From Minisyncoccota bacterium (GTDB lineage: Bacteria > Patescibacteriota > Minisyncoccia > Phycocordibacterales > JAQTLZ01): DNA of 64,000 bases. Positions within the stretch are counted from its first letter, which is position 1, and each line of letters starts with the position of its first letter. Positions 24,330 to 57,187 of the stretch are shown piece after piece. The notes under the pieces were generated by a model that did no database searches, was not told the origin of the DNA, and saw nothing but the letters and a program-made list of their open reading frames with translations. The DNA lies in NCBI GenBank assembly GCA_028711065.1, contig JAQTSY010000001.1, positions 86,610 through 150,609 of the forward strand, in the 5' to 3' direction. The position numbers were made by a program, and so were the translations under genes.

Positions 24330-24479
24330 ATCCCTTACTATCTTGAGCGAAGTAACAAGAATCGTTCTGGCTAAAAATTTAACCCTTATGTTTTGTGGCA
24401 AGTTTCTTTTTTGCATGCTAACATTCTTTCATTCATATTTTTATTGTTTCAATAAATCTGCTTTCACTTAAATACATAT

Positions 24480-24550
24480 CGGGGTGTGGTGTAACGGTAG
24501 CATCCATGATTTGGGATCATGTAGTCAGAGTTCGAATCTCTGCACCCCGA
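24480..24550 (+). tRNA. tRNA-Pro (anticodon TGG)
   Basis: Manual fold: acceptor cggggtg/caccccg, D-arm gtgt..gcat, anticodon stem catga/tcatg with loop tttGGGa (anticodon TGG), T-arm cagag-ttcgaat-ctctg, discriminator A. No encoded CCA. Confidence 0.8.
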
Positions 24551-24618
24551 CAAATAAAAACCTCGCATTACTTATCTTTATAAAATAAAGAGTAGAGATG
24601 CGAGGCTGTTGTTATGTT

Positions 24619-26355
24619 TTAGAATCTGTTGATTACGTCCTCCAAACCCAGTTCAGTAACCTCCTGGGTTCTGCGATTTCGCAATTCAACGATGCCTTCG
24701 GCAGCACGCCGGCCGACAGTTATTCGCCAAGGACAACCAATGAGGTCCGCGTCTTTAAACTTCGCACCTCCTTGCAGACTTTCACGATCGTCGAGGAGTA
24801 CCGGTATCCCTCGTCCAGCCAGACGCTCATAAAGCGTATCTGATACCTTTCGCTGGTCTGGGTTGTCATACTTGACCGGTATAATCTCGACCCTGAATGG
24901 GGCGACTGATACGGGCCAGATGATTCCATCTTTGTCCCGATTTTGTTCCACGATTGCCTGCATAAGGCGGGTTGTTCCGATACCGTAGCAACCCATCCAG
25001 AGAGGGTGTGGCTTGCCATCCTCGCCTTTGTATGTTGCTCCCATCTTATCTGTATAAAGGCTTTGAAGCATAAAGATGTGCCCCACTTCAATGCCGTGAC
25101 TTTCCTGTAACAAGCCCATTTTGCATTCAGGGCATGTATGGCCAGCCACTGCGAGGTGAAGGTCAAAATAGCACTCCGGCGCGGCGAAATCACGTCCCGG
25201 TACCACATCAAGGAAGTGGTGCTCGGTCTTGTTTCCGCCGCATAGGATGTTGATCAGTCCTTCGACCGAACGGTCGAAGAGAATGGCGCGCACGTTCTGA
25301 AGTCCGATCGGGCCTGCAAAGCCAACGTCAGCGCCCGTGACAGCGCGTACGACGTCCGGTTTTGCCGGTTCCACCGATTGCGCGCTGAGCGCGTTTTTGA
25401 GTTTGATGATATTGATTTCCAGATCGCCTCGGATGCAGACCGCGACTTGGTACGATTGGCTTGGGCCAAGTTCCTCGTCGGCGGTGAGAATAATGGTCTT
25501 CACCATACGAGTTGCATCAAGGTCCGGAAACAGCTTGACCAGATCTTCCACGGTGCGTGTATTCGGCGTGTATTCAAGACGCATTGTCGCCGAGGGCTTG
25601 CTTTGCGGTGTGGGCGTCGGAACAACACTCGTTGCCTTTTCGGCATTTGCTCCATAATTGCAAGTGGGGCAGGTCAGGAGTATGTCTTCCCCACCCTCTT
25701 CCGAAACCGCCATAAATTCCGAGGAACCTTTTCCCCCGATGGCGCCTGAATCCGCTTGCACGTTGATGCAATTGGTCAGTCCGACCCGCTGAAATATCTC
25801 CGTATAGATTAGGCGGAAGAGATCGAAACTCTTCTGCATACCAGCTTGGTCGCGATCGAACGAGTAGGCGTCCGACATATCGAATTCGCGACACCGAAGC
25901 AGTCCGTGCCGAGGCCGGATTTCATCTCTGAATTTCCATCCGATTTGATGCCAAATGACCGGCAAATCGCGGTAACTGTCAATCGTTTCTGCCGCGAGTT
26001 GTGTTACCACTTCTTCTGCGGTTGGAGCCAGGCCAAACTTCGCGCCAGTGTGCCGTTCGGTGGTCTCGAACATCACCTTTGTGCCGGTATACTTATCCCA
26101 GCGTTCGGTTTTCAGCCAAAGTTCTTGCGGTTGCAAAATCGGCAACTGCAAGTTTTGCACATCGTGGCTTTCCATCACGTCCCAGACGATCGCCTGGATT
26201 TGTCTCCAGACGCGAAAGCCGAGTGGCAACAGAATGTAAGATCCCGGTGCCAATTGCTTAATGAAGCCTGCCTTCAGGAGGAAGGAGTGGGCCGCTGTCA
26301 TCGCCGCACCGACCTCGCCGTAGCGAGTTCGGGGAAACAATTTGGTCATTCTCAT
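24619..26355 (-). CDS. proS: proline--tRNA ligase (bacterial type with editing insertion)
   Basis: 578-aa class II ProRS with motif-2/3 regions and an INS domain. GC content is markedly higher than genome background. Confidence 0.9.
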   Translation of the reverse strand: MRMTKLFPRTRYGEVGAAMTAAHSFLLKAGFIKQLAPGSYILLPLGFRVWRQIQAIVWDVMESHDVQNLQLPILQPQELWLKTERWDKYTGTKVMFETTERHTGAKFGLAPTAEEVVTQLAAETIDSYRDLPVIWHQIGWKFRDEIRPRHGLLRCREFDMSDAYSFDRDQAGMQKSFDLFRLIYTEIFQRVGLTNCINVQADSGAIGGKGSSEFMAVSEEGGEDILLTCPTCNYGANAEKATSVVPTPTPQSKPSATMRLEYTPNTRTVEDLVKLFPDLDATRMVKTIILTADEELGPSQSYQVAVCIRGDLEINIIKLKNALSAQSVEPAKPDVVRAVTGADVGFAGPIGLQNVRAILFDRSVEGLINILCGGNKTEHHFLDVVPGRDFAAPECYFDLHLAVAGHTCPECKMGLLQESHGIEVGHIFMLQSLYTDKMGATYKGEDGKPHPLWMGCYGIGTTRLMQAIVEQNRDKDGIIWPVSVAPFRVEIIPVKYDNPDQRKVSDTLYERLAGRGIPVLLDDRESLQGGAKFKDADLIGCPWRITVGRRAAEGIVELRNRRTQEVTELGLEDVINRF

Positions 26356-26482
26356 GGTTTTTGCCCTTTCTGTGGCTTGTGTTACTCTAAAGAACGGCTT
26401 TCCATCACAAGTTTTAGCTTAATATTGAAGCCGTCCTCTTGTCAAATGCGATTAAAATGGGTATTCTGCGCTAATAAATATA

Positions 26483-27303
26483 TGGATACAAAAACAAAAA
26501 CGACAACTATCGGTATCTTGGGCTATGGAAATATGGGTCAAGCAATTGTAGCACAACTCCAGACCATGAAAGCGTCAAAGATGAATATTGAGATTGTCAT
26601 TCATTCTTTGGGAGTGAGTAATGTTCCAGGCGCTCGCTGTGTCGAATCCTCCATTGATTTATTTGAAGCTAGTGATTTTGTATTTGTTTGCGTAAAGCCT
26701 CAGGATTTTTACCAGCTCAAGACGCTAACTATAAAAAATGCCAAACATTTGATTGTTGTTTCAATTATGGCCGGTGTTCGTATAGTCAATATTCAGAAAG
26801 TATTTCCTGGAGCTAAAGTCGTGCGAGTAATGCCAAATTTACCGCTCCAAATCGGGCAAGGCGTCATTGGCTGGTATTTGAAAAAAGATTCTTTGACTTC
26901 AGACGAGCAAGCTTTTCTTGAAAAAGTCTTTTCAGTATTTGGCTTGAGTGTCCCGTTGCAAGAGGAAAAAATGCTCGATGCATTGACGGCTGTCTCCGGT
27001 TCAGGTCCTGCTTATGTTTTTCTCTTTGCAAACGCTCTTATAAAGTCAGCACGAGAACTTGGATTTAGCCAAGATGTTGCCGAAAAGATTGTGATAAAAG
27101 CAATTACCGGTTCGATTGCCTATGCTGTTTCGAAAGAGCATCCTGATTTTGAGCGCCTTATTCAGATGGTGCAGTCAAAAGGAGGGACAACGGAAGCGGC
27201 GCTTAACACTTTGGATGTTGAAAATTATTATACAGAGTGGCAAAAGGCAATTAAAAAAGCCTACGAGCGCGCTCAAGAAATTTCTTCTCATGACAGCAAA
27301 TGA
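26483..27303 (+). CDS. proC: pyrroline-5-carboxylate reductase
   Basis: Rossmann 'IGILGYGNMGQAI' and a C-terminal 'SKGGTTEAAL' ProC signature. The longer 25846 ORF start is antisense to proS and was rejected. Confidence 0.85.
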
Positions 27304-28555
27304 ACTTAAAAAAAATATAGCTGACGCTAAAAGAGCAAGTACTTCTTTGCTCATTTTAACTGCGCTTGAACGACGAGAGGTTTTACTAAAACTTGCGGAG
27401 CTTCTCGAACGAAATAGCGGACGAATCATCGTTTTGAACCAGAAGGATATTTCTATCGCAAAACAAAATGGTAAAGCAGATAGTTTTATCGAACGGTTGT
27501 CTCTTGATAAGAATAAAATTATAGCGATGGCGAATGCAACTCGTGCAGTCGCAAAACAGCAAGATATTCTTTTTAAAACTCTAGAACAACGTCGACGGCC
27601 GAACGGACTTCTCATTAAAAAGGTTCGCTTCCCTCTTGGGCTTGTTGCTATGATTTACGAATCACGCCCGAATGTGACCATCGACGCTTTCACACTTTCT
27701 TTTAAAAGTGGTAATGCGCTTTTGTTGAAAGGAGGAAAAGAAATTCTGTTTACAAACAAGATTCTTGTCAGGCTTATTCACGAAGCGCTTGCGACGCGAC
27801 ATATTGACACGAATGTTGTTAAAAATCTAAGCGGATTGGATAAAAAATTCGTCATTGAATTAATGAGTAATCCTTCGATTGATTGTCTCATTCCGCGTGG
27901 GGGGAAAAACTTGATTGATTTTGTGAGAAAATACGCTCGCGTCCCGGTTATTGTCACTGGCGCTTCAGTTGTACACACCTATGTTGACTCCGATGCGAAC
28001 ATTGAAAGCGCCACACGAATTATTTTGAATGCAAAGATGCGACGTGTTTCTATCTGTAACGCGCTTGATGTCGTCCTTTTGCATCGAAAGGTATATGCGC
28101 AAATGTTACGAAAACTTGGGCCTGATTTGGCGGAAAAGCGCGTTCAAATTCGCGCCGACCGGCGGAGTTTCGACGTGCTCAAGAAATCCCGTTACCCATA
28201 TTTGAAACATGCTCTTGCGAAAGATTTCGATACTGAATTCCTTGATTATGTGCTTGCAATAAAAGTCGTCAACAATTTTGAAGAGGCGCTTCAGCATATT
28301 TCGGAGCATAGCTTAGGCCATAGCGAAGCCATTATCACTCGCTCGAAAAAGCATGCTGAAGTATTCTTTCGTACGATCGATGCGGCTTGTCTCTATCTCA
28401 ATACCTCAACTCAATTCAGCGATGGCGGAGAATTCGGAATGGGAGGAGAGATTGGCATTAGTACCCAGAAACTTCATGCTCGGGGGCCTTTTAGCGCGCT
28501 TGAACTCACGACATATAAATATCTCGTGAAGAGCGACGGAGCAATCAGGAAATAA
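27290..28555 (+). CDS. proA: gamma-glutamyl phosphate reductase
   Basis: Aldehyde-dehydrogenase-type ProA with a 'CNALDVVLLH' catalytic Cys region. Overlaps the proC stop by 14 nt. Confidence 0.85.
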   Translation: MTANELKKNIADAKRASTSLLILTALERREVLLKLAELLERNSGRIIVLNQKDISIAKQNGKADSFIERLSLDKNKIIAMANATRAVAKQQDILFKTLEQRRRPNGLLIKKVRFPLGLVAMIYESRPNVTIDAFTLSFKSGNALLLKGGKEILFTNKILVRLIHEALATRHIDTNVVKNLSGLDKKFVIELMSNPSIDCLIPRGGKNLIDFVRKYARVPVIVTGASVVHTYVDSDANIESATRIILNAKMRRVSICNALDVVLLHRKVYAQMLRKLGPDLAEKRVQIRADRRSFDVLKKSRYPYLKHALAKDFDTEFLDYVLAIKVVNNFEEALQHISEHSLGHSEAIITRSKKHAEVFFRTIDAACLYLNTSTQFSDGGEFGMGGEIGISTQKLHARGPFSALELTTYKYLVKSDGAIRK

Positions 28556-28630
28556 CACATTGCGTTTTCTGTCCGCAAAAGAAAAAACCTTCTGTCGCGG
28601 TGAAGCGAAAGAAGGTCTCATGCGTGTTAA

Positions 28631-29782
28631 TTATTTGGCGAAGACAAAGTCGTTGGCATGGATGGCGATGACCGCCGCTCCCCGCAATTGCTCCTTTTCG
28701 GCTTCTGGCAATATGCGGTACTTGTCGACTTTTTCTCGCAACTCATGGCTGGTGTGGCGGGTCAGTCCGCGTCCGAGGAGAATGCCGTCGTCATCAATAA
28801 TTTCGACGACGTCTCTTTTCCCGAACTCGCCCCTAACCTCTTCGATGCCGGCCAAGAGAACCGAAGGGGTTCTCCGCTCGCTTTTGTTCTGAGTTCCGCC
28901 TTCGCGAAGCCTGTCAGCTAGATAAGTTGAGACCACAATTTTTCCCGCTCCGACTGCCGCTGTGAGAAGCCAGCTTTTCAAGGCCTCTTCTTTTTCGGCT
29001 GTTGTGGGGAAGAATGTGCCGAGCTTCTCGCCCCCGATAATCCGCATAAGCGGTGTTTTCTCGGTTCCGGCGGCAATATGCATAGGAATGCCGAGCGAAG
29101 TTACTTTCTCGGCACAGAGGAGCTTGCTCTGAATGCCTCCCTTGCCGGTGTGTTTCCCCGCCTCAAATGTTTCCATAAAGGTGGAGACATCGGCAATTTC
29201 CGGTATAAGTTTGGCGCCCTCTTCCTGTGGCGGACGATCATACACTCCTGCCACGTTGGTGAGGAGGATGAGTTCGTCAGCCGATATCATCGCTGCAATA
29301 ACAAGCGCGAGCTGGTCATTGTCGCTGAAATCCAGTTCTTCCGGCGAGAGCACATCGTTCTCGTTGAAGATTGGAATAACGCCGTATCGGAGGAGTTCTC
29401 CGGTAACGACGCGCAAGCTCAAGTAGAACCTGCGATCAGCGAAGTCGGATCTTGTCGTCAGGAGTTGCCCGCAGCTCAAGTTATGTTTGGCGAATTCTTC
29501 GCTATACAACGCCATGAGCTTCGGTTGGCCTACAGACGCGAGAATTTGCTCCCGAAGAAGCCTCGAGTCATACCGGTCTGGCGCATTGACGGCGAACGTT
29601 GGGTTCGCGAATTGCGAGACGGTTTTCCCCAGGATGACTGCCCCCGAGGAGATAATGACGACTTGATGGCCTTGCTTTACGAGTCCGGCAACGTCTTCCA
29701 CGAGGTTTGCGATAACCTCGTGCTTGATGCCGTCCGGCCCGGAAAGCACAGCGGAACCGATTTTTACTGCGATGCGTTTCAT
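28631..29782 (-). CDS. proB: glutamate 5-kinase (with PUA domain)
   Basis: 'IAVKIGSAVL' amino-acid kinase N-terminus and a C-terminal PUA domain. GC-rich like proS. Confidence 0.85.
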   Translation of the reverse strand: MKRIAVKIGSAVLSGPDGIKHEVIANLVEDVAGLVKQGHQVVIISSGAVILGKTVSQFANPTFAVNAPDRYDSRLLREQILASVGQPKLMALYSEEFAKHNLSCGQLLTTRSDFADRRFYLSLRVVTGELLRYGVIPIFNENDVLSPEELDFSDNDQLALVIAAMISADELILLTNVAGVYDRPPQEEGAKLIPEIADVSTFMETFEAGKHTGKGGIQSKLLCAEKVTSLGIPMHIAAGTEKTPLMRIIGGEKLGTFFPTTAEKEEALKSWLLTAAVGAGKIVVSTYLADRLREGGTQNKSERRTPSVLLAGIEEVRGEFGKRDVVEIIDDDGILLGRGLTRHTSHELREKVDKYRILPEAEKEQLRGAAVIAIHANDFVFAK

Positions 29783-29831: not shown

Positions 29832-30167
29832 TCACTGATAGAGATGAATTTCCGCTGACCGCTCCTTCAACTCTTTTTCCGATAAATGTTTACCGGTGCG
29901 CGTATCATAAAAACGTTCTTCTCCCGACTTAAGCTTGCACCAGATTACCGTTCCCTCAACTGAAGGACAAAACAGATCGACAGGTGAGCCGCCCTCGATT
30001 GAAATTACCACATCAGGTGGCTCTCCTTTCTTAGCTTTAGTGCCAAACAGCACAAGCAGGGCATTACAGTTAGTATTGGTTTTGATGAAGCATGATAGAA
30101 CTGTCCCTTTATGCATCGCCACAATTTCCGACATTGCCCCTTTCCGGGAAGCTTTGGCTTTTTTCAT
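29832..30167 (-). CDS. hypothetical protein co-transcribed upstream of proB
   Basis: AAGGAG lies 8 nt before the ATG on the minus strand. 111 aa; no motifs. Confidence 0.45.
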   Translation of the reverse strand: MKKAKASRKGAMSEIVAMHKGTVLSCFIKTNTNCNALLVLFGTKAKKGEPPDVVISIEGGSPVDLFCPSVEGTVIWCKLKSGEERFYDTRTGKHLSEKELKERSAEIHLYQ

Positions 30168-30403
30168 CTGAATTCTCCTTCTTCGAGGTCGTCAAAGTTG
30201 ACAGAGGACGTCTTAACAGCACAGTCTTCAGCTTAAATCGAAGTCATTGTTTTGTCAAATCTATTCAACACCCCCTTTGATACTGAAATATAATCAAAAT
30301 AATGCTAAAATAAACCACCGACAAACTTGTTTTTCTTGCCAAACCTCCTGTGCATAAGAAACTCCCTTTTTCCCGCTATTTTGATAGAATAAAGCCTAAT
30401 AAA

Positions 30404-30886
30404 ATGGAAAAAATCATAAAAATTACGAAGGGTTCTGGGATGGGAGAGACAAAATTATCCGCTTTTGACGCCGCATTATTTGACGCGGGAATTGCTAACT
30501 ATAATTTGATTCGCCTTTCTTCAATTATGCCCGAGGGATACGAACCGAAAGTAGAGAAAATAAAAATGAATGGATCAACAGACTTTGGCAATAAACTTTA
30601 TGTCGTCTACGCATCACAGATCGAGAACGAAATAGGGAAGGAGGCATGGGCTGGTGTCGGCTGGGTGATGTCAAAAACAGATCCGAAACGGGGCCTCTTT
30701 GTCGAACACGAAGGAGCAGACCGAGCTCAGATCGAACGGCTCATCAGCGAAAGTCTCACAAGCATGGTCAAATACCGCAAAGAAGAATACGGAGAGATCA
30801 GGAGCGAAATCTGCGGAATAAAATGCGAGTCAAAACCAGTTTGCGCCCTTGTTGCTGCGGTTTACAAATCTGAAGGATGGGAGTAG
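30404..30886 (+). CDS. pdaD: pyruvoyl-dependent arginine decarboxylase (archaeal PdaD / AaxB type)
   Basis: 'GETKLSAFDAALFDAGIANYNLIRLSSIMP' is nearly identical in pattern to the PdaD self-cleavage region (the Ser-Ser pyruvoyl site). Confidence 0.85.
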   Translation: MEKIIKITKGSGMGETKLSAFDAALFDAGIANYNLIRLSSIMPEGYEPKVEKIKMNGSTDFGNKLYVVYASQIENEIGKEAWAGVGWVMSKTDPKRGLFVEHEGADRAQIERLISESLTSMVKYRKEEYGEIRSEICGIKCESKPVCALVAAVYKSEGWE

Positions 30887-30914
30887 GGTATTGAATACAT
30901 TTTCTTTTTTATCT

Positions 30915-31823
30915 ATGCACTGGTTTCTCTTTGCTCTTATCAACCCCGTACTCCACGCGGCAGCAAACCATATAGACAAACACCTCATCTCGAAATATTT
31001 TAAGTCGGGAAGCGTTGGTGCTCTTGTCATTTTCACGGCAATTTTCGCGCTCTTTGCGCTTCCTATAATCTGGCTGATCCACCCGGCAATTACCGCAGTC
31101 AGTCCAGTGCACGCGCTTATTCTTGTTTTGAACGGAACACTTGCGTTGGGCTATGTTATTTTATACCTCTATGCTTTGGAAAAAGACGAAGCCTCAATCA
31201 TAGCTCCTTTCTTCCAGATGATTCCAATCTTCGCTTTCATTCTTGGATTTTTTATTTTGAAAGAATTGCCCTCGGCCAAACAAATTGTCGCTGGTCTTCT
31301 TATCATCTGCGGAGCTATCACGTTGTCGCTTGATTTTTCTGGTGCAAAAATAAAATTCAAAAAAGCAGTCGTGCAACTGATGCTTGCTTCATCGCTTCTT
31401 TTGGCCGTAAACGGTGTCATTTTTAAATTCATTGCGCTCAATGAAGGATTTCTGACATCACTTTTCTGGGGAATGCTTGGCCAAATCATTCTAGGAATTC
31501 TCCTCTTTTTGTTTGTAACCTCATACAAAAAACAATTTATACAAGTAGTACGGCAAAATACTTTACCGGTTCTTGGACTTAACTTTCTGAACGGACTGAT
31601 CATTCTCATGGGGGATGTCGCGCTCAATTTCGCAATACTTCTCGCACCAGTCAGTCTTGTCCTCGCAGTAAGCGGTTTCCAGCCTCTCTTCGTATTCATT
31701 TTTGGAATTCTTTTGACTTTTTTTTACCCAGCATTCGGTAAAGAATCGTTCGAGAGAAAAGTACTTGCGCAGAAAATCGCCGGAATAGCCATTATTATTT
31801 TGGGAAGCGTTCTCATAAACTAA
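30915..31823 (+). CDS. EamA/DMT-family transporter
   Basis: About 300 aa with 10 predicted TM helices in a duplicated EamA-like arrangement. Immediately downstream of pdaD. Confidence 0.6.
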   Translation: MHWFLFALINPVLHAAANHIDKHLISKYFKSGSVGALVIFTAIFALFALPIIWLIHPAITAVSPVHALILVLNGTLALGYVILYLYALEKDEASIIAPFFQMIPIFAFILGFFILKELPSAKQIVAGLLIICGAITLSLDFSGAKIKFKKAVVQLMLASSLLLAVNGVIFKFIALNEGFLTSLFWGMLGQIILGILLFLFVTSYKKQFIQVVRQNTLPVLGLNFLNGLIILMGDVALNFAILLAPVSLVLAVSGFQPLFVFIFGILLTFFYPAFGKESFERKVLAQKIAGIAIIILGSVLIN

Positions 31824-31828
31824 AATCT

Positions 31829-32734
31829 ATGATTCCAGAATTTCCAAAATTTAAAAAATTAGAGCTCTCTGACAAAGCGGATGTGGAGGCTTTTACCCAT
31901 AAATACCCGCCATATTCTGATTTTAATTTTACTAGTATGTGGTCCTGGAATATAAAAGATGAGATGAGTATTTCACAGATGAATAATAATTTTGTCGTCC
32001 GTTTTACAGACTACGTCACAGGCAAACCGTTCTTATCATTTCTCGGTACAAATAAAGTAAATGAGACAGCACAGGCACTCTTGGAATTTTCAAAATCTGA
32101 AGGCCTAGAAGAGCAGATGAAATTAATTCCCGAAGATGTAATAAAACATCTCAATAAGGAACAATTTAAAATCCAGGAGGATAGAGATAATCACGATTAC
32201 ATTTTTTCTGTAGAGAAATTAAAGCCGCGGGCCAGTGCGGGAAGAAAATTAAGTACGAGAAGAAAGATCGTAAATAGGCTCCGACAACTCTCTCATTATT
32301 CCGTAACTCCAATTGATTTAAACGACAAAACTGTAAAAGAAAAAATCGAAAAAGTTTCTCTTGTATGGGAAGAGCAAAGGGGTATAGCAGAGAAAGATGC
32401 GAGGCATCTTTCTCGAGCCATGAACCGCATACTCACCATGGAACACTCGAAAAATACTTTATCTTTGGGGGTATTTATTAGAGAACAATTTGTCGGCTAT
32501 TCAATAAATGAAATCGTGAACGATGAGTACGCGATGGGAGATTTTCAACAGGCCGATCTAAAATCTTCTCTGGGAATATATGCCTTTCTCATGGAAGAAA
32601 CGGGTCTCTATTTAGACAAAATCGGCTGTAAATATATAAATCTTGAGCAAGATTTGGGTATTCCGGGACTTAGGAAGTGGAAAATGTCTTATCATCACGA
32701 TTTCTTCCTTAAAAAGTATATTGTAAGCCTGTAG
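31829..32734 (+). CDS. DUF2156 domain protein (MprF C-terminal aminoacyl-transferase-like)
   Basis: N-terminal 'FKKLELSDKADVEAFTHKY..YSDFNFTSMWSW' matches the DUF2156 / LysPG-synthase C-domain pattern (L.LeDk..f..y......s#f.F.n$%.W). Confidence 0.55.
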   Translation: MIPEFPKFKKLELSDKADVEAFTHKYPPYSDFNFTSMWSWNIKDEMSISQMNNNFVVRFTDYVTGKPFLSFLGTNKVNETAQALLEFSKSEGLEEQMKLIPEDVIKHLNKEQFKIQEDRDNHDYIFSVEKLKPRASAGRKLSTRRKIVNRLRQLSHYSVTPIDLNDKTVKEKIEKVSLVWEEQRGIAEKDARHLSRAMNRILTMEHSKNTLSLGVFIREQFVGYSINEIVNDEYAMGDFQQADLKSSLGIYAFLMEETGLYLDKIGCKYINLEQDLGIPGLRKWKMSYHHDFFLKKYIVSL

Positions 32735-32778
32735 ATAAGTGACTCCTCATAAAGTTATCATCTGGTATAATAAATTTC

Positions 32779-33606
32779 ATGAAAGAACACTCTCTCAATA
32801 TGAGAAAAAATAAAGAAATACAAACAGTATTTTCTATTTTTATTATCCTTACACTTTGGAGAGTTGCTTTATTCCTCTTTCATGTAGAAGAGGGCCAGTC
32901 TTGGTCATTTTGGTGGGGAGCAACTTATCAAATTATCGCGCTCTGGGGAGGAATTCGGGGTTTAATGGCATCTCGCGCTTGGGGAGGACACAAGAGCAAA
33001 TTAGGAAGACTTATAATAGCATTCTCGATTGGACTTCTGTTCCAGGTATTTGGTCAGACGGTCTCAAGCTATTTCGTGTACACAACCGGAGATATTCCAT
33101 ATCCCTCATTGGGTGATCTGGGTTTCTTTGGCAGTATTCCTTTCTACATGTATGGAGTTTTCTTGCTGGCTCAAGTATCAGGAGTTTCTTTTTCTCTCAA
33201 GAAAAATATAACAAAACAAACAATAGCCTTCGGGGCATTCTTAGCAATGATATTTGTATCGTATCTCATCTTTCTGAATGGGCAGCAGTTTGATTGGTCT
33301 GATCGCCTCGGGACATTTCTGAATATCGCTTACCCCCTTACGCAAGCAGGATACGTGGCATTGGCAATTCTCACTTATCTGTTGTCGAGAAAATATTTAG
33401 GGGGAATGATGAAAATCCCGATTCTCCTTTTTCTTGCTGCCTTGGTCATAGAATATTTGTCTGATTTCACTTTTCTCTACCAGGCGGTTCACAATTTGTA
33501 TATTCCTGAGGGAATAAACGATTACATGTACTGTGTAGCATACTTTATCATGGCAATTGCCCTCATATCGGTAAGTATTACATTCAACAAAATAAGAGAA
33601 TCATAA
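32779..33606 (+). CDS. polytopic membrane protein, hypothetical
   Basis: About 7 TM helices; no motifs. Lies upstream of a soluble histidine kinase. Confidence 0.45.
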   Translation: MKEHSLNMRKNKEIQTVFSIFIILTLWRVALFLFHVEEGQSWSFWWGATYQIIALWGGIRGLMASRAWGGHKSKLGRLIIAFSIGLLFQVFGQTVSSYFVYTTGDIPYPSLGDLGFFGSIPFYMYGVFLLAQVSGVSFSLKKNITKQTIAFGAFLAMIFVSYLIFLNGQQFDWSDRLGTFLNIAYPLTQAGYVALAILTYLLSRKYLGGMMKIPILLFLAALVIEYLSDFTFLYQAVHNLYIPEGINDYMYCVAYFIMAIALISVSITFNKIRES

Positions 33607-33613
33607 AATTACC

Positions 33614-33889
33614 ATGGCCACCCTCGACCAAATTGCCACAAAGATAATCACGGAGCAGGAGCTTGTTATCGGCCCTCTTGCTTGGAGTGAGGCGGGGAAG
33701 GTCCAGGGATTACAAGTTAGCGATCACCACATTACTTTCAACGATGGGGATCAAAAAGAAGTGGTAAACCGTCTTGTCAGCCAGTATGAACGACTTTTCG
33801 GCAGAGCTTCTCACGAAGTGTGTCGGGAAGCTGTTGCTAGCATGATTGCTGATCTTAAGCCCGAAGAGATTCCCTCCAGCCTAAGATAG
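33614..33889 (+). CDS. small hypothetical protein
   Basis: 91-aa ORF tightly following the membrane protein. Confidence 0.35.
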   Translation: MATLDQIATKIITEQELVIGPLAWSEAGKVQGLQVSDHHITFNDGDQKEVVNRLVSQYERLFGRASHEVCREAVASMIADLKPEEIPSSLR

Positions 33890-34017
33890 GACTTCCGCCT
33901 TTGGCGAACTTCTTCGTTACTTCACTCGTTTGTTCCCGCACTGTATAATAATACAGCTTGGTCACAAGCTCGCTTGCGCCTCGAATTTCATCCAAATGCG
34001 CAAGTCCTTCATGAAAA

Positions 34018-35394
34018 ATGTTTCTTCGAAAAACAAAAACCCAGGCTATACAAAGCCCGTCGTCTCCTAATGACGATGAATTCAAAAAGGCTACGGAAAG
34101 CCTCTACAAGCAAAATCACGAGCTTGCGATAAAAAACAAGACCCTTTCTCTTCTTCGAGAGCTCTATCAAATCAGCATCCAGAATTTTCGGCCCGAAACT
34201 CTTGCGGAAAGATTAACGAAAACAATTCGCGATGCGTTTGAGTATGAATTAGTGGGGCTTTTTTCATATCAGGTTGAAAAAGACACTTTTACTCCGGTTC
34301 GATTTTCAAGATCAGAACGGTGGGATAAAACACGCGCCGAGATGAAGCTCTCTTTTGATTCTCTTACTATTGCGGAAGCTTCACAGGGCATACTTTCTCC
34401 GCTTGTTCGCGAAAAGACAATGGTGCATGTAGAAAATCTTGCCGATATCTGGATAGAAAATCTGCCAGCTAAAGTTATCAAAGAATTTCAGGAGAAAGTG
34501 CACGTAAAAAGTCTCTTGACGTATCCGCTCCTTACAGAGAACAGAATAATAGGAGTACTCGCTATCGGCCTCAACAGAAACTACAACGAGCTGATTCAAT
34601 ACGAAAAAGATTCGATTGCAAGCTTCATTAACGTCATAGCAATCGCGCTCGACAAAGCATATTTGTATAAAGAGTTACAGATCACGAATAAAGAGCTCGC
34701 GGAAGCGAACGAAAGACAAACTACCCTTATCCACTTCATAACCCATCAGGTCAAAGGCTTTCTTACTAATTCACGAAACGTCTTCTCAATGATCCTTGAG
34801 GGAGATTTCGGCGAGATATCTGATGAAGTGCGCAAGATGGCCCAAGGGGGACTTGAATCCGGTACGAAAGGCGTTAATACTGTTCAAGACATCTTGAACG
34901 CGGCAAATATAAAAACAGGGAAAATGGGTTATATTATGGCGTCCATGGATGTCCGCCCATTAGTCGAGAGTACAACTTCAGAATTAAAAGGAGCAGCAGA
35001 GAAAAAAGGACTGAAACTTACACTCAACAATTCTGCTGATTCATACATGATAGAGGGCGACAAAGAACAACTAAAGCATGTCTTCAAAAATCTTATCGAC
35101 AACTCGATCAAGTACACCCCGACAGGCAGCGTAAATGTCTCGCTCGAAAAGAAAGATGGGAAAATACTTTTTGCGGTCAAAGATACGGGAGTCGGAATTA
35201 CAGATGAGGACAAGAAACGCCTCTTTACGGAAGGTGGACATGGAGCAGAGTCACAAACAATCAATGTTGAGTCTACTGGCTTTGGACTTTTTATCGTAAA
35301 AGGAATTGTCGAGGCACACCATGGCCGCGTTTGGGCAGAGTCAGAAGGGAAGGGAAAAGGCTCGCAGTTCTATGCAGAATTCCCAGCTAAGTAA
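34018..35394 (+). CDS. GAF-domain sensor histidine kinase (cytoplasmic)
   Basis: HisKA H-box 'IHFITHQVKG' and HATPase_c N/G boxes ('NLIDNSIKYT', 'DTGVGI', 'GFGLFIVKGIVEAHHG'). No TM segment. No response regulator in the window. Confidence 0.8.
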   Translation: MFLRKTKTQAIQSPSSPNDDEFKKATESLYKQNHELAIKNKTLSLLRELYQISIQNFRPETLAERLTKTIRDAFEYELVGLFSYQVEKDTFTPVRFSRSERWDKTRAEMKLSFDSLTIAEASQGILSPLVREKTMVHVENLADIWIENLPAKVIKEFQEKVHVKSLLTYPLLTENRIIGVLAIGLNRNYNELIQYEKDSIASFINVIAIALDKAYLYKELQITNKELAEANERQTTLIHFITHQVKGFLTNSRNVFSMILEGDFGEISDEVRKMAQGGLESGTKGVNTVQDILNAANIKTGKMGYIMASMDVRPLVESTTSELKGAAEKKGLKLTLNNSADSYMIEGDKEQLKHVFKNLIDNSIKYTPTGSVNVSLEKKDGKILFAVKDTGVGITDEDKKRLFTEGGHGAESQTINVESTGFGLFIVKGIVEAHHGRVWAESEGKGKGSQFYAEFPAK

Positions 35395-35401
35395 GTCGAA
35401 T

Positions 35402-35716
35402 TTGACACTATTTTTACCTCCTGTATAGTAAATACAGATTCTTTACAACTGCAATATCTACGTATAGGTCCCTTGGCTTAGGCTTAAGGGATTGGGCCTA
35501 TGCAGTTCGCGTAAGCGAGCAAGATGATTTCTGCGCAAGTGGAAATCCGGTCTCCTCCGTTACAAGGATAATCGATGTCTGCCGAAAGGCGTATGAGTCG
35601 ATGAGTGGAACAAAAAAGACCCGCTCGGGTATTTTTTGTTCCTGAAACCCAAGGTGGTACCGCGGAAAACCCGCCCTTGATGCATATTTCGATATGCGTC
35701 GAAGGCGGGTTTTTTG
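35402..35716 (+). promoter_or_regulatory. T-box riboswitch leader (probable tRNA-Trp specificity) with its own sigma70-type promoter
   Basis: Promoter TTGACA-N16-TATAGT at 35402-35429. F-box 'CCGTTA' at 35558-35563. T-box sequence 'aaGGTGGTACCGCGG' at 35651-35665 (13 of 14 matches to AGGGUGGNACCGCG). Terminator 'cccgccc..ggcggg' followed by TTTTTT at 35670-35716. Candidate specifier 'UGG-A' lies in 'gcaagUGGAaauc'. Downstream are trpB-trpA-trpS. Confidence 0.75.
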
Positions 35717-35844
35717 CGTGTGATTGTAAAAATGGTTCATTTAAAAAGAGAGATTTCACCAAGTCAACGGAGTTCGCTTCCAATGTGGCAAGCGATCCCG
35801 AAATTACCGAGCGTCACCCGAAGGCGAGTAGAAAGGAAAAAACG

Positions 35845-36039
35845 ATGGAAACAAGAACTGACCGGACAGAGCTCCTTGAGCTTCTCCTCAAGGAACACCT
35901 CACCCCAGAGGAAGAGGCGAAGCTCGCTCAGAACGAGGGCGTGGCCAACGGACTCGTGGATACAATGCGGGGACGTTTGGTGAGTTTTGGTCTCCGCCCC
36001 AAAAACGGCGAGAAAGATCCACGCTGTTGGGCGCAGTAA
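35845..36039 (+). CDS. small GC-rich hypothetical ORF (64 aa) between the T-box leader and trpB
   Basis: RBS-like 'gaaaggaaaaaacgATG'. About 57% GC versus 40% background. Followed by hairpin 'ggcctcgtgcaatcacgacgaggcc' at 36064-36088 with a weak U-tract. Confidence 0.35.
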   Translation: METRTDRTELLELLLKEHLTPEEEAKLAQNEGVANGLVDTMRGRLVSFGLRPKNGEKDPRCWAQ

Positions 36040-36133
36040 CAGAAGTACTCTCTGAGAGATAAGGGCCTCGTGCAATCACGACGAGGCCTTCTATTAAAAT
36101 CAAATGTTTTCAGCTACTATTAGTTAAAATGCA

Positions 36134-53652: not shown

Positions 53653-54974
53653 TTTTTACGTTGATTAACCCAGATTGCTTCCCGACGGCACAGTTTTGAG
53701 GCGTCAGACGGATTCAAGAGAAGTTTTTCTACAACGCCCTCTAAATATCTTGCCCCTTTGAAAAGAATTGTTTCTCCTCCTTTCAATTCTCTTTTGAGAT
53801 ACAAGAGGGCTTCACCGGGCATAAGAAAGGCTATGACTTTTTGAGTTCCTAGATGTTTTACAAGCGGGGGATAGGTATATTTTGTGAGTCTCGGCCCAAC
53901 AAGAATAACCCGCGCAGGGGAGACAGACAAGATGTCTTTTGCAATATCTATGTGCTCTGCCTCCTCGCTCTTGCCTTGTTCAATCATATCTCCGAGGACA
54001 AGCCACTTTTCGCCTATGGCCGGATGGCGACGAGTAAGATCAAGCATCGTCCGCATTCCATCCATTGTTGCATTGTAGGTGCTATCAATAAGCGTCGTGT
54101 TTTCTATTCCCTGAAATACCGAGCTTCTGCCAGGAGGAAGTTCGAAATTTCTAAACGTGGAATCAACTTTAAATCCAAGAGTTTTCACAGCCGTCGAAAC
54201 CGCGACAACCGAGAGGGAAGAGGCGGGTGGAACCAACCGAGGGAGCGAGAAATTCCCGACCAGAGTCTCAATCTCTACGCCCTCGTTTACAATTTTAAAG
54301 CTCCGGATCTCCTTTTCAGAAACTGGAATTACTTTTGATTTTGTCCGTTTTGATTGTTTTGTTATGAAACGATTGTCAGCGTTTAAAATAGAAAACCCCT
54401 TGGTAGTCTCCAGAAAATGGCCAAATTCGTTTGCCATCGCTTCTTTGACTGCCTCGCGATGATTATCTCCGGAAGATGCAACAATGCGATCAAAATTTAT
54501 TCCGTGCGCTTCTTCCAAGGAAAGCCACACAAGCCCTTCGGGCTTTAGAAGTTGCGCCAAGAATTTTCCTTCACCCGGCCGTTCTGCGTCAGCCTCCACT
54601 ACATATAATTTCTCTTTTGGAAGGCCTCGAAATGCTCGAAATGGCGAGAGGAGAGCAAAAAGCGGCCATTCGATTATATTAAAAGATTTCCGCTGAAGCC
54701 CCAGAATATGAAATGGAATCCCAAAAGTGCTGTTTGCGTGGTGCGAATATCGAGCCCTTTCGCCAAGTTCGGCTTCAAATAAATGAAGGAGGGTTGTTTT
54801 CCCACTTGAGCCGATAACCGCTATGATTTTCGGATTCCATCGGCGCAAATAGATTTTTGCCCAAAATCGAAAGTAGCTGGCTACAAAAAAATAAATTTTC
54901 TTTTTTATTGTTCTTAGAATTTTCATATGCCGCGTTTTATTTTTCGTACCGTTTCGACAACAAAATTGATCCAA
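53640..54974 (-). CDS. Mur ligase family protein (MurF-like, short N-terminus)
   Basis: 'IIAVIGSSGKTT' Mur-ligase P-loop and a central/C-terminal Mur ligase fold. Overlaps the neighbouring genes, consistent with an operon. Confidence 0.55.
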   Translation of the reverse strand: MDQFCCRNGTKNKTRHMKILRTIKKKIYFFVASYFRFWAKIYLRRWNPKIIAVIGSSGKTTLLHLFEAELGERARYSHHANSTFGIPFHILGLQRKSFNIIEWPLFALLSPFRAFRGLPKEKLYVVEADAERPGEGKFLAQLLKPEGLVWLSLEEAHGINFDRIVASSGDNHREAVKEAMANEFGHFLETTKGFSILNADNRFITKQSKRTKSKVIPVSEKEIRSFKIVNEGVEIETLVGNFSLPRLVPPASSLSVVAVSTAVKTLGFKVDSTFRNFELPPGRSSVFQGIENTTLIDSTYNATMDGMRTMLDLTRRHPAIGEKWLVLGDMIEQGKSEEAEHIDIAKDILSVSPARVILVGPRLTKYTYPPLVKHLGTQKVIAFLMPGEALLYLKRELKGGETILFKGARYLEGVVEKLLLNPSDASKLCRREAIWVNQRKKWQI

Positions 54975-57187
54975 TATCTCGGGCTTAAAACATAATCCTG
55001 TGCAGGAACATACTTTCCTTCTCCACCGCCGAAACCGCGCTTAAATTGTGACAACCCGTACCACGGATGTTTTTTATCATCTTCAGAAACAATTCCCCAA
55101 AAATTATACGAATCACATCCGCGTTTTTTCGCTTCTTTTATCGCCTCCCATTGCAAAAGCTCCGATGCGGAAATAGAAGGGAAGGGGGTATTTGAAGCTC
55201 CGTGGTGATAAAATCCTGAATTCGAAGTATAGATGATAAATGCCGTTGAAATATATTGGCCTTTGTATTTTCCAAACCACAAAAGCGCCTGATTATTTTC
55301 TAGAAATGTTTTAAATTCATTCTCTAAATATTTTCTTGAAAACGGCGTAAAATTTTGCCGCTTCACCGTGTCCATATAAATTGACCAGAATTTTTCAAAA
55401 TCCTCCATTGATTTTGATGATTCAATCTCGACGCCATCTTTAATAGCCTTACGGACCGCATAACGAGTATTTTTCCTCATTCCAGTTTGAATTTCCTCCT
55501 CTGTTTTCGAAAGAGAGAGAACAGAGGTGTGTTCACTGTGGAGATGAATCGGAGCTTTTTTAAATCCTAGTTCAGTAAAAATTTTAGAATGAGCAGGGGA
55601 GTCCGCGAGTATACTACTGACCCGGATAAAGTGACAATTCTCCTTTCTACCAATCGCGACTGATTCATCTTTCAAGAGTTCGAGAATTTCTGAAGTTTTT
55701 CCCGAGTATGCGGGATCAATCGCTGGACTATGATGCCAAGCAAGAAAAGTCCCCCGGCGAGCGACAATTTTTGTAACACTCGAGGCCGCGACAAGCTTCC
55801 CTTCGTCATACACACCTAGTCTCCAAAGTTTATTTCCCATTTTCTTTTCAAACTCTCCCCAATTCCAAGAAATAAGAAAAGTTGCTGGTTTAACCCGCAT
55901 GAGAAATGACTCGAGCTCTTCTTTTGAATTAATTTCCCTTACTTGCATGAAAGAATCTTTTATTGCATTTGCGATTTTTTTCGCGTCCTGCACCGATATC
56001 TGGATACTAGTCGGCAAATTTATCGATTTTTCTGAAAGTTCTTTCGCGCGAGGATTCTCGGAGAGCGCAAATTGAATTTTTTCATACTGAACTCCTTCTG
56101 GGGCTATCGCGTCCGTATACCAATTACCAAGGCGCACTCCTCGCGTCTTCAAAAACAATGCGAGCTTTGATGGCAGATCGATAAGAATTGTGTAGCGGAG
56201 ATAGATGCTCTTTCTTATTTCATCTTTCACTTTGAGAGGCTTCACGATTCGAGAAATCGAAGCGAGTTCCCGTTCATATACTTCTGCTATCTGGCGGCGA
56301 TGCTCATTAAATGCAGAAAGCTTCGCGAATTGATGAAGTGCAACAAAAGCCAAAATATCTGACATTTTATGAAAGACGAAGCTTGGTTTGCCCCCGGAAA
56401 GTTCTGCCTTCTCAACTGCTTTTGAAAAAAATCCTAGGCGCTTGCAAATTTCGATGAAAATCTTGCCGATATTTGCTACTGAATAAAGAGGTTTTCCCAA
56501 AGCAAAGATGATTGGATGATTGAGTTGTTTCTTCACCCAACCCCATTTTGATTCAGAATATGATGCGTAGAGCGTCCGGACATCGTTTGCGATTCGCGCG
56601 TCTTTCACTAACAGTACACCTCCGAAGACCGAAGAAAGAACTTTATCCCGCCCGAAACTAAAGAAACTCGCATCGCCGAAACTTCCAACCTTTTTACCTT
56701 TATATTCTGCACCAAGCGCATGCGCGCAGTCTTCAATGACAAAAAGATTATGTCTTCGGGCGATAAGAAGCAACTCCTCCAGATGTGCCGGCGTGCCGAA
56801 TGTATGCTGGATGATGAGTACCCTGGCTTTCGAAGTAATTTTTTTCTCGAGATCTTCAGGATTCATCGTAAAGTCATCCAAACTATCGACATAAATAGGC
56901 TTCGCACCCACCCAAAGTATCGGCCCCGGCACTGCAACGCAGGTATAAGCTTGCAAAAGAACCTCATCAGTTGAGGAAAGATTCAGCGCGGATAAAATTG
57001 CAAAAAGAGATGTTCGCCCGCTATCAAAAGCAAAAGCATGGGGAAGGGGAATATAGGTCGAAATCGCATGCTCAAGGCGAGCTCTGGAACCGAGGGTCTT
57101 ATTCCTCGTCCACGGAAAAAATCGCAAACGAATTGCGAGGGAAATATCGTCACGCTCTGTGTTTGGCGAAAGGCTCGTAAAAATCAT
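54923..57187 (-). CDS. DegT/DnrJ/EryC1-family PLP aminotransferase fused to a FemAB-family aminoacyl-tRNA-dependent peptidyltransferase
   Basis: N-terminal half: 'DCAHALGAEYKGKKVGSFGDASFFSFGRDKVL' (DegT PLP-lysine region). C-terminal half: 'MRKNTRYAVRKAIKDGVEI', 'LLQWEAIKEAKKRGCDSYNFWGI' and 'GLSQFKRGFGG' (FemAB PF02388 signatures). A single 754-aa ORF. Confidence 0.8.
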   Translation of the reverse strand: MIFTSLSPNTERDDISLAIRLRFFPWTRNKTLGSRARLEHAISTYIPLPHAFAFDSGRTSLFAILSALNLSSTDEVLLQAYTCVAVPGPILWVGAKPIYVDSLDDFTMNPEDLEKKITSKARVLIIQHTFGTPAHLEELLLIARRHNLFVIEDCAHALGAEYKGKKVGSFGDASFFSFGRDKVLSSVFGGVLLVKDARIANDVRTLYASYSESKWGWVKKQLNHPIIFALGKPLYSVANIGKIFIEICKRLGFFSKAVEKAELSGGKPSFVFHKMSDILAFVALHQFAKLSAFNEHRRQIAEVYERELASISRIVKPLKVKDEIRKSIYLRYTILIDLPSKLALFLKTRGVRLGNWYTDAIAPEGVQYEKIQFALSENPRAKELSEKSINLPTSIQISVQDAKKIANAIKDSFMQVREINSKEELESFLMRVKPATFLISWNWGEFEKKMGNKLWRLGVYDEGKLVAASSVTKIVARRGTFLAWHHSPAIDPAYSGKTSEILELLKDESVAIGRKENCHFIRVSSILADSPAHSKIFTELGFKKAPIHLHSEHTSVLSLSKTEEEIQTGMRKNTRYAVRKAIKDGVEIESSKSMEDFEKFWSIYMDTVKRQNFTPFSRKYLENEFKTFLENNQALLWFGKYKGQYISTAFIIYTSNSGFYHHGASNTPFPSISASELLQWEAIKEAKKRGCDSYNFWGIVSEDDKKHPWYGLSQFKRGFGGGEGKYVPAQDYVLSPRYWINFVVETVRKIKRGI

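Follow-up and report, generated by a model that had tools for sequence, protein, structure and literature searches.

A PvlArgDC-family decarboxylase gene clustered with a DMT-family transporter, a DUF2156 protein and a putative three-gene sensor kinase in a Patescibacteria genome

Introduction

Pyruvoyl decarboxylases of the PvlArgDC family are described from Methanocaldococcus jannaschii, whose enzyme PdaD is represented by PDB entries 1n2m, 1mt1 and 2qqd, and from the AaxABC system of Chlamydia, in which, according to the available part of the account (PMC2720952), the decarboxylase is encoded beside a membrane carrier. The subject of this work is a cluster of six genes that starts with a PvlArgDC-family gene, also placed beside a carrier gene, in a window of 64,000 nucleotides (nt; the whole stretch of DNA analysed, positions 86,610 to 150,609 of contig JAQTSY010000001.1 in assembly GCA_028711065.1). 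The host is a tiny-genome member of the Paceibacterota, within the candidate phyla radiation (CPR) or Patescibacteria, and its assembly of 974 kb in 31 contigs is 99.4% complete by marker genes. AaxABC includes an antiporter of the amino acid-polyamine-organocation (APC) type, AaxC, and a porin, AaxA, whereas the carrier of the window is an EamA protein of the drug/metabolite transporter (DMT) kind. Unlike AaxABC, the cluster further includes a putative transferase and a sensor kinase, and its carrier belongs to a gene module that is found also without the decarboxylase.

The putative transferase is a DUF2156 protein (PF09924). The same domain, described as having a basic helix between its two halves, is present in MprF and the aminoacyl-phosphatidylglycerol synthases, and mprF of Staphylococcus aureus is regulated by the two-component system GraRS (available part of PMC8774646), a link of the kind also seen here. 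The window protein differs from MprF in being free-standing, with neither flippase nor anchor, in having a separate EamA carrier, and in the recruitment of a decarboxylase to its locus. Free-standing DUF2156 proteins of double-GNAT fold, as predicted for that of the window, are the fungal ergosteryl-glycine synthase ErgS and the Bacteroides protein 2hqy (PMC8913301). ErgS acts on ergosterol, and the accessible part of the same source describes neither protein together with a sensor kinase, an EamA carrier or a decarboxylase.

Two further kinds of system share features with the locus. In the valanimycin pathway, the amine derives from the action of an amino-acid decarboxylase and an N-oxygenase. 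VlmA of this pathway is a double-GNAT enzyme dependent on aminoacyl-tRNA (aa-tRNA) that acts on a small amine-derived acceptor, isobutylhydroxylamine, and aa-tRNA-dependent double-GNAT transferases of natural-product pathways use small amine-type acceptors (available part of PMC12945691), as proposed below for the window protein; one locus related to the window (L128) also has an N-monooxygenase in the slot of DUF2156. The review counts VlmA among the FemABX enzymes, and its accessible part mentions neither DUF2156 nor MprF. Valanimycin is made by a Streptomyces antibiotic cluster that, unlike the window, is without a sensor kinase. In staphylococcal agr and Bacillus comQXP, biosynthetic genes lie beside a kinase with a sensor of many transmembrane (TM) segments (AgrC; available part of PMC8774646), as is the case here. 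The agr and comQXP signals are peptides, whereas the chemistry of the window would be amine-based and its kinase is split over three genes.

Results

The six genes lie on the (+) strand between window positions 30404 and 35394 and are separated by successive gaps of 28, 5, 44, 7 and 128 nt. The first three, coding for the decarboxylase, the EamA transporter and the DUF2156 protein, had been recognised with the same boundaries in a first-pass annotation, and its three family assignments hold. Its grouping of the three is plausible, as metagenome loci L103 and L104 have all three genes as well. Past the DUF2156 gene, the cluster extends on the same strand through genes for a polytopic membrane protein (mem275), a small soluble protein (p91) and a GAF-domain histidine kinase without TM segments, and ends at 35394.

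The decarboxylase proenzyme (160 amino acids, aa; 30404–30886, + strand) matches the PvlArgDC profile PF01862 with 101.8 bits (cut-off 22.7) over profile positions 4–160 of 161 and includes the peptide GETKLSAFDAALFDAGIANYNLIRLSSIMP, quoted in the first-pass annotation as the self-processing region of a PdaD. The assignment stands at the family level, with the TIGR00286 match below its equivalog cut-off and the Ser-Ser site present. The M. jannaschii enzyme (PDB 1n2m), a protein of 165 aa in the same Pfam family, is matched at E 5e-11, and the alignment retains the Ser-Ser site and the equivalents of Asn47 and Glu109; LIRLSSIMP of the window pairs with LIRISSIMP of 2qqd, and FVEHEG pairs with IMEYEG. 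Ser53 has been reported as the cleavage site and Glu109 as aiding cleavage (available part of PMC2720952), and self-cleavage of the window protein is predicted to occur between the two Ser residues of LIRLSSIMP. In an alignment of the subfamily (A1), S39, S40, N32, N34, D22, E101 and H102 are invariant in all nine sequences. Compared with PdaD, however, the whole-protein match reaches just 46 bits, the TIGR00286 score falls under the profile cut-off, the subfamily has its own motifs EAWAGIGW and PVCALVAAVY, and it is encoded with sensor kinases and transferases rather than with agmatinase. PvlArgDC genes of other kinds lie near an agmatinase-family gene in genomes G205 (locus L035; <100 nt) and G101 (~1.2 kb), a classical arrangement that contrasts with that of the window's subfamily.

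Of 401 Patescibacteria genomes sampled, 30 have PF01862 matches, which form a high-scoring group (~150–211 bits) and a low-scoring group (~60–116 bits), to which the window protein belongs. In the alignment, the canonical form has ~185 aa, the motifs SFE.ALR, VSSIFPP and GYLSEHH, and an insertion, whereas the short form of the window is characterised by LSAFD.AL, NYNLIRLSSVIPP, EAWAGIGW, GLFVEH.G and PVCALVAAVY. At E ≤1e-10 the decarboxylase is matched by 1909 protein clusters; among the top 120, nine have a named source, and all nine are from CPR bacteria. Hence, the archaeal or chlamydial distribution assumed in the first-pass annotation is too narrow. By these comparisons, the decarboxylase belongs, as a putatively self-processing member, to a PvlArgDC subfamily specific to CPR bacteria; genes of this subfamily usually neighbour those for sensor kinases.

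The surroundings of the gene were compared in 89 subfamily loci, comprising the window, its close relative L001, seven loci from genomes and 80 from a similarity-ranked set of at least 375 metagenome relatives; open reading frames (ORFs) in these loci are simple longest-ORF calls. A kinase gene is present within 6 kb in 29 of the 89 loci, being of the HisKA_7TM type in 22 and TM-less in seven. Among the 23 loci flanked by ≥4 kb on either side, a kinase gene is present in 17, a receiver gene in 13, any two-component part in 18 and a transferase-type gene in 15. By the same local profiles, none of 11 control loci with other PvlArgDC types has a kinase, a two-component part or a transferase. Likewise, a HisKA_7TM kinase gene lies within ~4 kb of the decarboxylase gene in all six subfamily genomes that possess one, as compared with none of nine canonical-type genomes. 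In the decarboxylase tree, the kinase and transferase associations extend over most deep branches, with differing intervening genes.

The commonest immediate neighbour, found in 21 of the 89 loci, is a GNAT-fold family, one member of which matches FeeM (40.7 bits) and six of which match Acetyltransf_1. A 754-aa ORF elsewhere in the window (54923–57187, – strand) gives a weak match (E 2.8e-9) to the local profile of this family. In L001 the neighbours are a GARS_C/ATP-grasp-like protein (34.3 bits, slightly under the cut-off) and a DapF-like protein; other loci have a class I/II aminotransferase, an M20 peptidase, a PrmA-like methyltransferase or a SET protein, and in the near-duplicate loci L128 and L129 a lysine/ornithine N-monooxygenase occupies the slot of DUF2156. 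Three recurrent neighbour families (C7, C16 and C17) gave no Pfam match. Chemical reasoning on the enzyme classes suggests that the variable neighbours are of types able to act on a primary amine. The carriers belong to three families, EamA, MFS and MtN3/SemiSWEET-like, with EamA in only nine of the 89 loci. The decarboxylase–EamA pair is kept in L001 and is divergent in L103, L104, L108, L117, L121 and L128.

Twenty HisKA_7TM loci from genomes that lack the subfamily were also inspected. The GNAT-fold family occurs in two of these (L150 and L155), and in both a pyridoxal phosphate (PLP)-dependent ornithine/arginine decarboxylase is adjacent, beside the 7TM kinase; in L155, mem275 and a p91–kinase fusion adjoin that kinase as well. 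Four others (L153, L161, L166 and L169) have a ThiF-family gene and a gene for a 508-aa protein directly upstream of the kinase gene, and two of the four also have a nitroreductase-like gene. The 508-aa protein gave no Pfam match, and we take the set to resemble the biosynthesis genes of azole peptides (thiazole/oxazole-modified microcins, TOMM).

The part of the cluster downstream of the decarboxylase gene recurs on its own. From 32 other free-standing DUF2156 loci of Patescibacteria, 20 were taken, their neighbours being unknown beforehand. The mem275 gene lies beside that for DUF2156 in 15 of the 20, and these 15 modules include EamA in 13 cases, p91 in 14, a TM-less kinase in 13 and a receiver-domain gene in eight; none of the 15 genomes has a PF01862 match. 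As the module occurs in 15 PvlArgDC-free genomes, the five genes EamA–DUF2156–mem275–p91–kinase form a conserved unit, at the 5′ end of which the decarboxylase gene stands here. The comparison of gene orders thus shows a conserved module across Patescibacteria, and the five-gene core is present in at least 16 of the 401 sampled genomes (the 15 modules and the window), a lower bound. In L134 and L139, a PLP-dependent decarboxylase of the ornithine/arginine/diaminopimelate type (PF02784 and PF00278) is encoded between DUF2156 and EamA, and in L137, L138 and L144 a protein of the S-adenosylmethionine decarboxylase (AdoMetDC) family AdoMet_dc (PF02675) adjoins EamA. A methyltransferase gene adjoins that for DUF2156 in L140, L143, L146 and L147. 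L134/L139 and L140/L147 are same-genus pairs. These arrangements show that decarboxylases of unrelated families (PLP ornithine/arginine type and AdoMetDC type), as assigned by profile, can take the same place in modules without PvlArgDC.

The EamA/DMT-family protein (302 aa; 30915–31823, + strand) matches PF00892 with 49 bits (cut-off 28.2) in its first repeat, and ~10 hydrophobic segments were found by a simple hydropathy count, in keeping with the 10-TM transporter of the first-pass annotation. Its ORF (30849–31823) begins further upstream, with a TTG at 30849. The ATG at 30915, 28 nt past the decarboxylase stop codon, is the likely true start, as it agrees with the start of the 75% identical EamA protein of L001 (MQWFLF).

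The DUF2156 protein (LPG_synthase_C; 301 aa; 31829–32734, + strand) matches PF09924 with 76.1 bits (cut-off 27.5) over profile positions 8–297 of 298, corresponding to the entire protein and bearing out the earlier assignment. Among solved structures it is closest to the uncharacterised Bacteroides protein PDB 2hqy (E 3e-12), a match that implies a double-GNAT fold. A profile built from 26 sequences of the family reaches 2hqy at E 3e-57 and no further PDB chain at E ≤0.01. PF09924 proteins are described as two GNAT halves with a positively charged helix between them, and their substrate specificity as not predictable from sequence (available part of PMC8913301). In the middle of the window protein lies a K/R-rich stretch, ASAGRKLSTRRKIVNRLRQLSH, with seven K/R among 22 residues, read as a basic helix; across the family alignment, G138 and R145 hardly vary. 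The protein has no hydrophobic segment and no membrane, flippase or anchor domain. PF09924 was found in 48 of the 401 genomes, with 11 long MprF-like open frames of 543–739 aa and 33 free-standing frames of ~220–350 aa, including that of the window.

The TM-less histidine kinase (458 aa; 34018–35394, + strand) consists of an N-terminal conserved helix followed by GAF (27.4 bits), DHp and HATPase_c (89.5 bits) domains and has no hydrophobic segment. The Pfam HisKA profile gave no match in it at E ≤0.01. It matches a profile of the neighbouring kinases with 255.6 bits, and His243 is invariant in the alignment (A6) within the motif ..H(Q)..(G/T)(F/P)LT. The mem275 protein (32779–33606, + strand) is mostly membrane-embedded and gave no Pfam or NCBIfam match. 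In the decarboxylase set, mem275 is encoded in all seven loci with a TM-less kinase, as compared with none of the 22 HisKA_7TM loci, and p91 (91 aa; 33614–33889, + strand), also without a Pfam match, is present in six of the seven mem275 loci.

Elsewhere these proteins are connected by gene fusions of three kinds. A search of longer proteins gave 16 mem275 homologues, 15 of them with an additional domain. In one (P0002, 758 aa; E 9e-62), GAF, HisKA and HATPase_c domains follow the mem275-like part, and residues 29–451 of the window kinase align with its cytoplasmic part at E 1e-52, starting from a common YK.N.EL..NKTL.LL helix. A single ORF of 381 aa in L138 consists of mem275 (residues 8–276) and p91 (residues 294–381), and one of 372 aa in L155 consists of p91 (residues 1–93) and the kinase core (residues 110–370). 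Because of these fusions, mem275, p91 and the kinase are shown to be one sensor kinase divided over three genes. We read mem275 as its membrane sensor domain, detached from the downstream kinase, and p91 as an adaptor or input domain.

Further mem275 homologues carry NB-ARC, GGDEF, EAL or HD domains, or are PAS kinases. Two of them from Patescibacteria (P0003 and P0004, 765–767 aa; E 1e-50 to 1e-55) have an NB-ARC/STAND NTPase domain, located in P0003 at residues 122–345. A diverged HisKA_7TM domain (PF16927) was considered for mem275 and rejected, as there was no Pfam match at E ≤1 and the hhalign probability was 0.3%. On these data mem275 would define a separate, new family of membrane sensor domains, with p91 as a small partner domain. 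In an Atlas model, mem275 looks like the membrane domains at the N-termini of GGDEF and PAS proteins (TM-score 0.72–0.80), a lead that agrees with the fusions. The AlphaFold model of p91 has a pLDDT of 95.3; a fold search with it gave nothing at E ≤0.001, and the weak top matches to H-NOX domains (TM-score 0.53–0.56, E ~0.5) may serve as a weak lead. Within the p91 gene, position 33743 is G in the window and A in contigs of both DNA runs used for checking the assembly, the change replacing Asp by Asn at the non-conserved residue 44.

L001 was the sole locus retrieved by a search of genome contigs with the single decarboxylase protein, and its decarboxylase is 91% identical. DNA homology with the window covers 24476–29560, which is inverted in L001, and 30347–31822, that is the decarboxylase and EamA genes (74% nucleotide identity); it resumes in the kinase core at 34705–35018 (82% amino-acid identity). 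The intervening 31823–34704, with the DUF2156, mem275 and p91 genes and the kinase input region, has no match in L001, the equivalent stretch of which codes for a 139-aa protein, the ATP-grasp-like and DapF-like proteins and a 7TM input domain. Biosynthetic genes have thus been swapped together with the input part of the kinase, in likeness to the variable regions of agr and comQXP. The left boundary of the swap is covered by a contig of DNA run X1 (30808–33682), and the right boundary is bridged by contigs of runs X1 (33721–35568) and X2 (33658–35447); X1 may be the sample from which the assembly derives. The upstream block shared with L001 (24476–29560; L001 1–5150) holds proS, P5C (pyrroline-5-carboxylate) reductase, aldehyde dehydrogenase-family and amino-acid-kinase genes and resembles proline synthesis genes; its inversion in L001 indicates local rearrangement. 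The tRNA gene at 24480–24550 (+ strand; RF00005, 61.4 bits) is the sole Rfam match of the 64-kb window, and L001 has a 90-nt stretch 96% identical to this region.

As to metabolic context, agmatinase was found in none of eight subfamily genomes and agmatine deiminase in none of five, the host genome included. The host genome also lacks spermidine synthase, a PLP ornithine/arginine decarboxylase and an APC permease (PF13520). Agmatinase is absent from four of five canonical-type genomes too, and so its absence alone does not distinguish the subfamily. A spermidine-synthase-like gene is present in three of five subfamily genomes; in one genome (G260, locus L032), a spermidine-synthase-family match (PF01564, 40.8 bits) lies ~6 kb downstream of the decarboxylase gene. 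L032 and L033 (G302) have in common an ORF family of 214–216 aa at a similar distance (~6 kb downstream).

A scan for promoters and terminators stayed at chance level in number of sites (promoter-like, 11 against 11.7 expected; terminator-like, 8 against 5.9), and Rfam at gathering thresholds gave no match inside the cluster. The best promoter-like site of the scan (11 of 12) is at 35402–35429. Between the kinase gene and a TrpB-like gene, the region 35400–36100 has no Rfam match, and its ORFs, on both strands, are all short and overlapping. A 111-aa ORF at 29832–30167 gave no Pfam match.

Discussion

The reading favoured here, a tentative one that we regard as possible rather than probable, is that the cluster serves amine synthesis, tRNA-dependent tailoring, export and sensing and not acid resistance. 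The decarboxylase would convert an amino acid, most likely arginine, to a primary amine (agmatine), which would bypass polyamine synthesis and be tailored by the neighbouring transferase; in the window, DUF2156 would transfer to it an aminoacyl group from aa-tRNA. The product would be exported by EamA, and mem275, on sensing the product or the resulting surface state, would switch the GAF kinase via p91. The kinase would then pass the signal to a response regulator whose gene lies in another part of the genome. We infer the arginine substrate, the action of the transferase on the amine, the use of aa-tRNA, the export by EamA and the sensing of the product by the kinase.

Several observations weigh against this reading. 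As to the arginine substrate, the TIGR00286 score (78.1 bits, E 5.6e-22) is under the curated equivalog cut-off of 106.95, and the equivalog cut-off of NF009064 is likewise missed (50.6 against 207); hence the decarboxylase is filed as a member of the PF01862 family and not as a proven arginine decarboxylase. The putative tRNA dependence of DUF2156 is read from Pfam membership, the family profile reaching just the uncharacterised 2hqy, and the experimentally characterised PF09924 enzymes described all modify lipids (glycerolipids and ergosterol, free-standing ErgS included; available part of PMC8913301). Six of the 15 modules have no PLP decarboxylase, AdoMet_dc or methyltransferase gene in the stretch examined, and DUF2156 thus need not use the product of a decarboxylase. 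One large sub-clade of the decarboxylase tree is without kinase or transferase neighbours, and because related genomes share synteny, the loci cannot be counted as independent events. The swap was seen in one pair only, that with L001, and recombination, easiest in the conserved kinase core, could explain its right boundary without selection. No response regulator is encoded within the 64-kb window, and among the sequencing runs searched none from RNA contained the locus, which was found in three DNA runs of one landfill-metagenome study.

The same evidence on PF09924 enzymes and on modules without a decarboxylase or methyltransferase speaks for the main rival, lipid aminoacylation under an envelope-sensing kinase. 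As in a split MprF, DUF2156 would aminoacylate a membrane lipid, which in a CPR cell may come from its own host, and EamA would flip it outward; the polytopic kinase would be an intramembrane sensor of envelope or charge that controls the system, and the decarboxylase would add a cationic amine or be loosely coupled. The control of mprF by GraRS in S. aureus (available part of PMC8774646), the mostly membrane-embedded nature of mem275 and the 11 long MprF-like forms in the phylum fit this envelope model. It does not explain why three unrelated decarboxylase families have been recruited to the module, as lipid aminoacylation needs none. Furthermore, DUF2156 has here no membrane anchor, its slot can be filled by an N-monooxygenase (L128), and the decarboxylase subfamily is equally paired with soluble GNAT, ATP-grasp-like and methyltransferase genes and with carriers of small solutes. 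Envelope remodelling is therefore considered rather unlikely, though a serious contender, and of the lipid and metabolite acceptors hinted at in the first-pass annotation for DUF2156, the metabolite gains in likelihood.

Another possibility is that a housekeeping agmatine-forming decarboxylase has come to lie by chance beside a DUF2156/sensor-kinase module. Other genomes have the complete module without this decarboxylase, one decarboxylase sub-clade is found in housekeeping contexts (e.g. Fpg and PheT), and the inverted proS–proB block of L001 testifies to local rearrangement. Chance placement is nevertheless improbable in view of the kinase frequencies (17 of 23 subfamily loci against none of 11 controls), their recurrence over deep branches with differing intervening genes, the analogous decarboxylases in the same module elsewhere, and the tight gaps to the following genes. 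We give still less credence to the AaxABC-like acid-resistance module proposed in the first-pass annotation, in which decarboxylation would use up a proton and EamA would take up arginine in exchange for agmatine, as a means of acid resistance or a source of energy, with DUF2156 and the kinase as bystanders or regulators. The logic is workable with a PvlArgDC enzyme, as AaxBC proves (available part of PMC2720952), the genome has no onward metabolism of agmatine, and the decarboxylase and EamA genes, 28 nt apart, stay together in L001 and, divergently, in the six other loci. On the other hand, 13 of 15 modules have EamA in genomes without any PvlArgDC, and only nine of 89 subfamily loci include it; among related decarboxylase loci the partners are instead GNAT, ATP-grasp-like, N-monooxygenase or methyltransferase genes, and the carriers are of the MFS or SemiSWEET-like kinds. 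The genome has no APC-type antiporter, and no DMT arginine:agmatine exchanger was found in the literature as far as accessible. The exchange model also leaves unexplained the conserved transferase and the three-piece sensor kinase into which the cluster runs on, the latter being absent from the earlier proposal. Ordinary polyamine biosynthesis, from arginine through agmatine to putrescine and spermidine, would accord with the name arginine decarboxylase given to the protein by the sources and with the spermidine-synthase-like gene in three of five subfamily genomes. It is very improbable for the host, whose 99.4% complete genome contains no agmatinase, agmatine deiminase or spermidine synthase.

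If amine synthesis, tailoring, export and sensing are indeed combined, a more general scheme may be put forward, as a speculation that we think unlikely as it stands. Patescibacteria would possess circuits that make, export and sense a signal, in which an amine from a PvlArgDC, AdoMetDC-like or PLP decarboxylase undergoes variable tailoring to a strain-specific cationic signal, is released by a DMT carrier and is recognised by a polytopic receptor kinase. The signal of the window could then be, for example, an aminoacyl-agmatine formed by tRNA-dependent DUF2156, with mem275, p91 and the GAF kinase as its receptor, and tailoring genes and receptor input would be exchanged as a unit, as in pherotype systems. 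Such signalling chemistry, resembling quorum sensing or directed to the host of the bacterium, would be new to the literature searched, which consisted mostly of titles and abstract openings, with subscription journals outside it, and which gave no account of this module.

CPR bacteria have genomes of ~1 Mb with very few regulators and are thought to have almost no regulatory capacity. The host genome has five HATPase_c and three receiver-domain matches, and yet this regulator-poor genome devotes six adjacent genes to the cluster. DUF2156 proteins of the 2hqy type gain from it a first functional context, and three unrelated decarboxylase families converge on one module. The cluster is thus a candidate for the production and sensing of a small molecule in episymbiotic bacteria.

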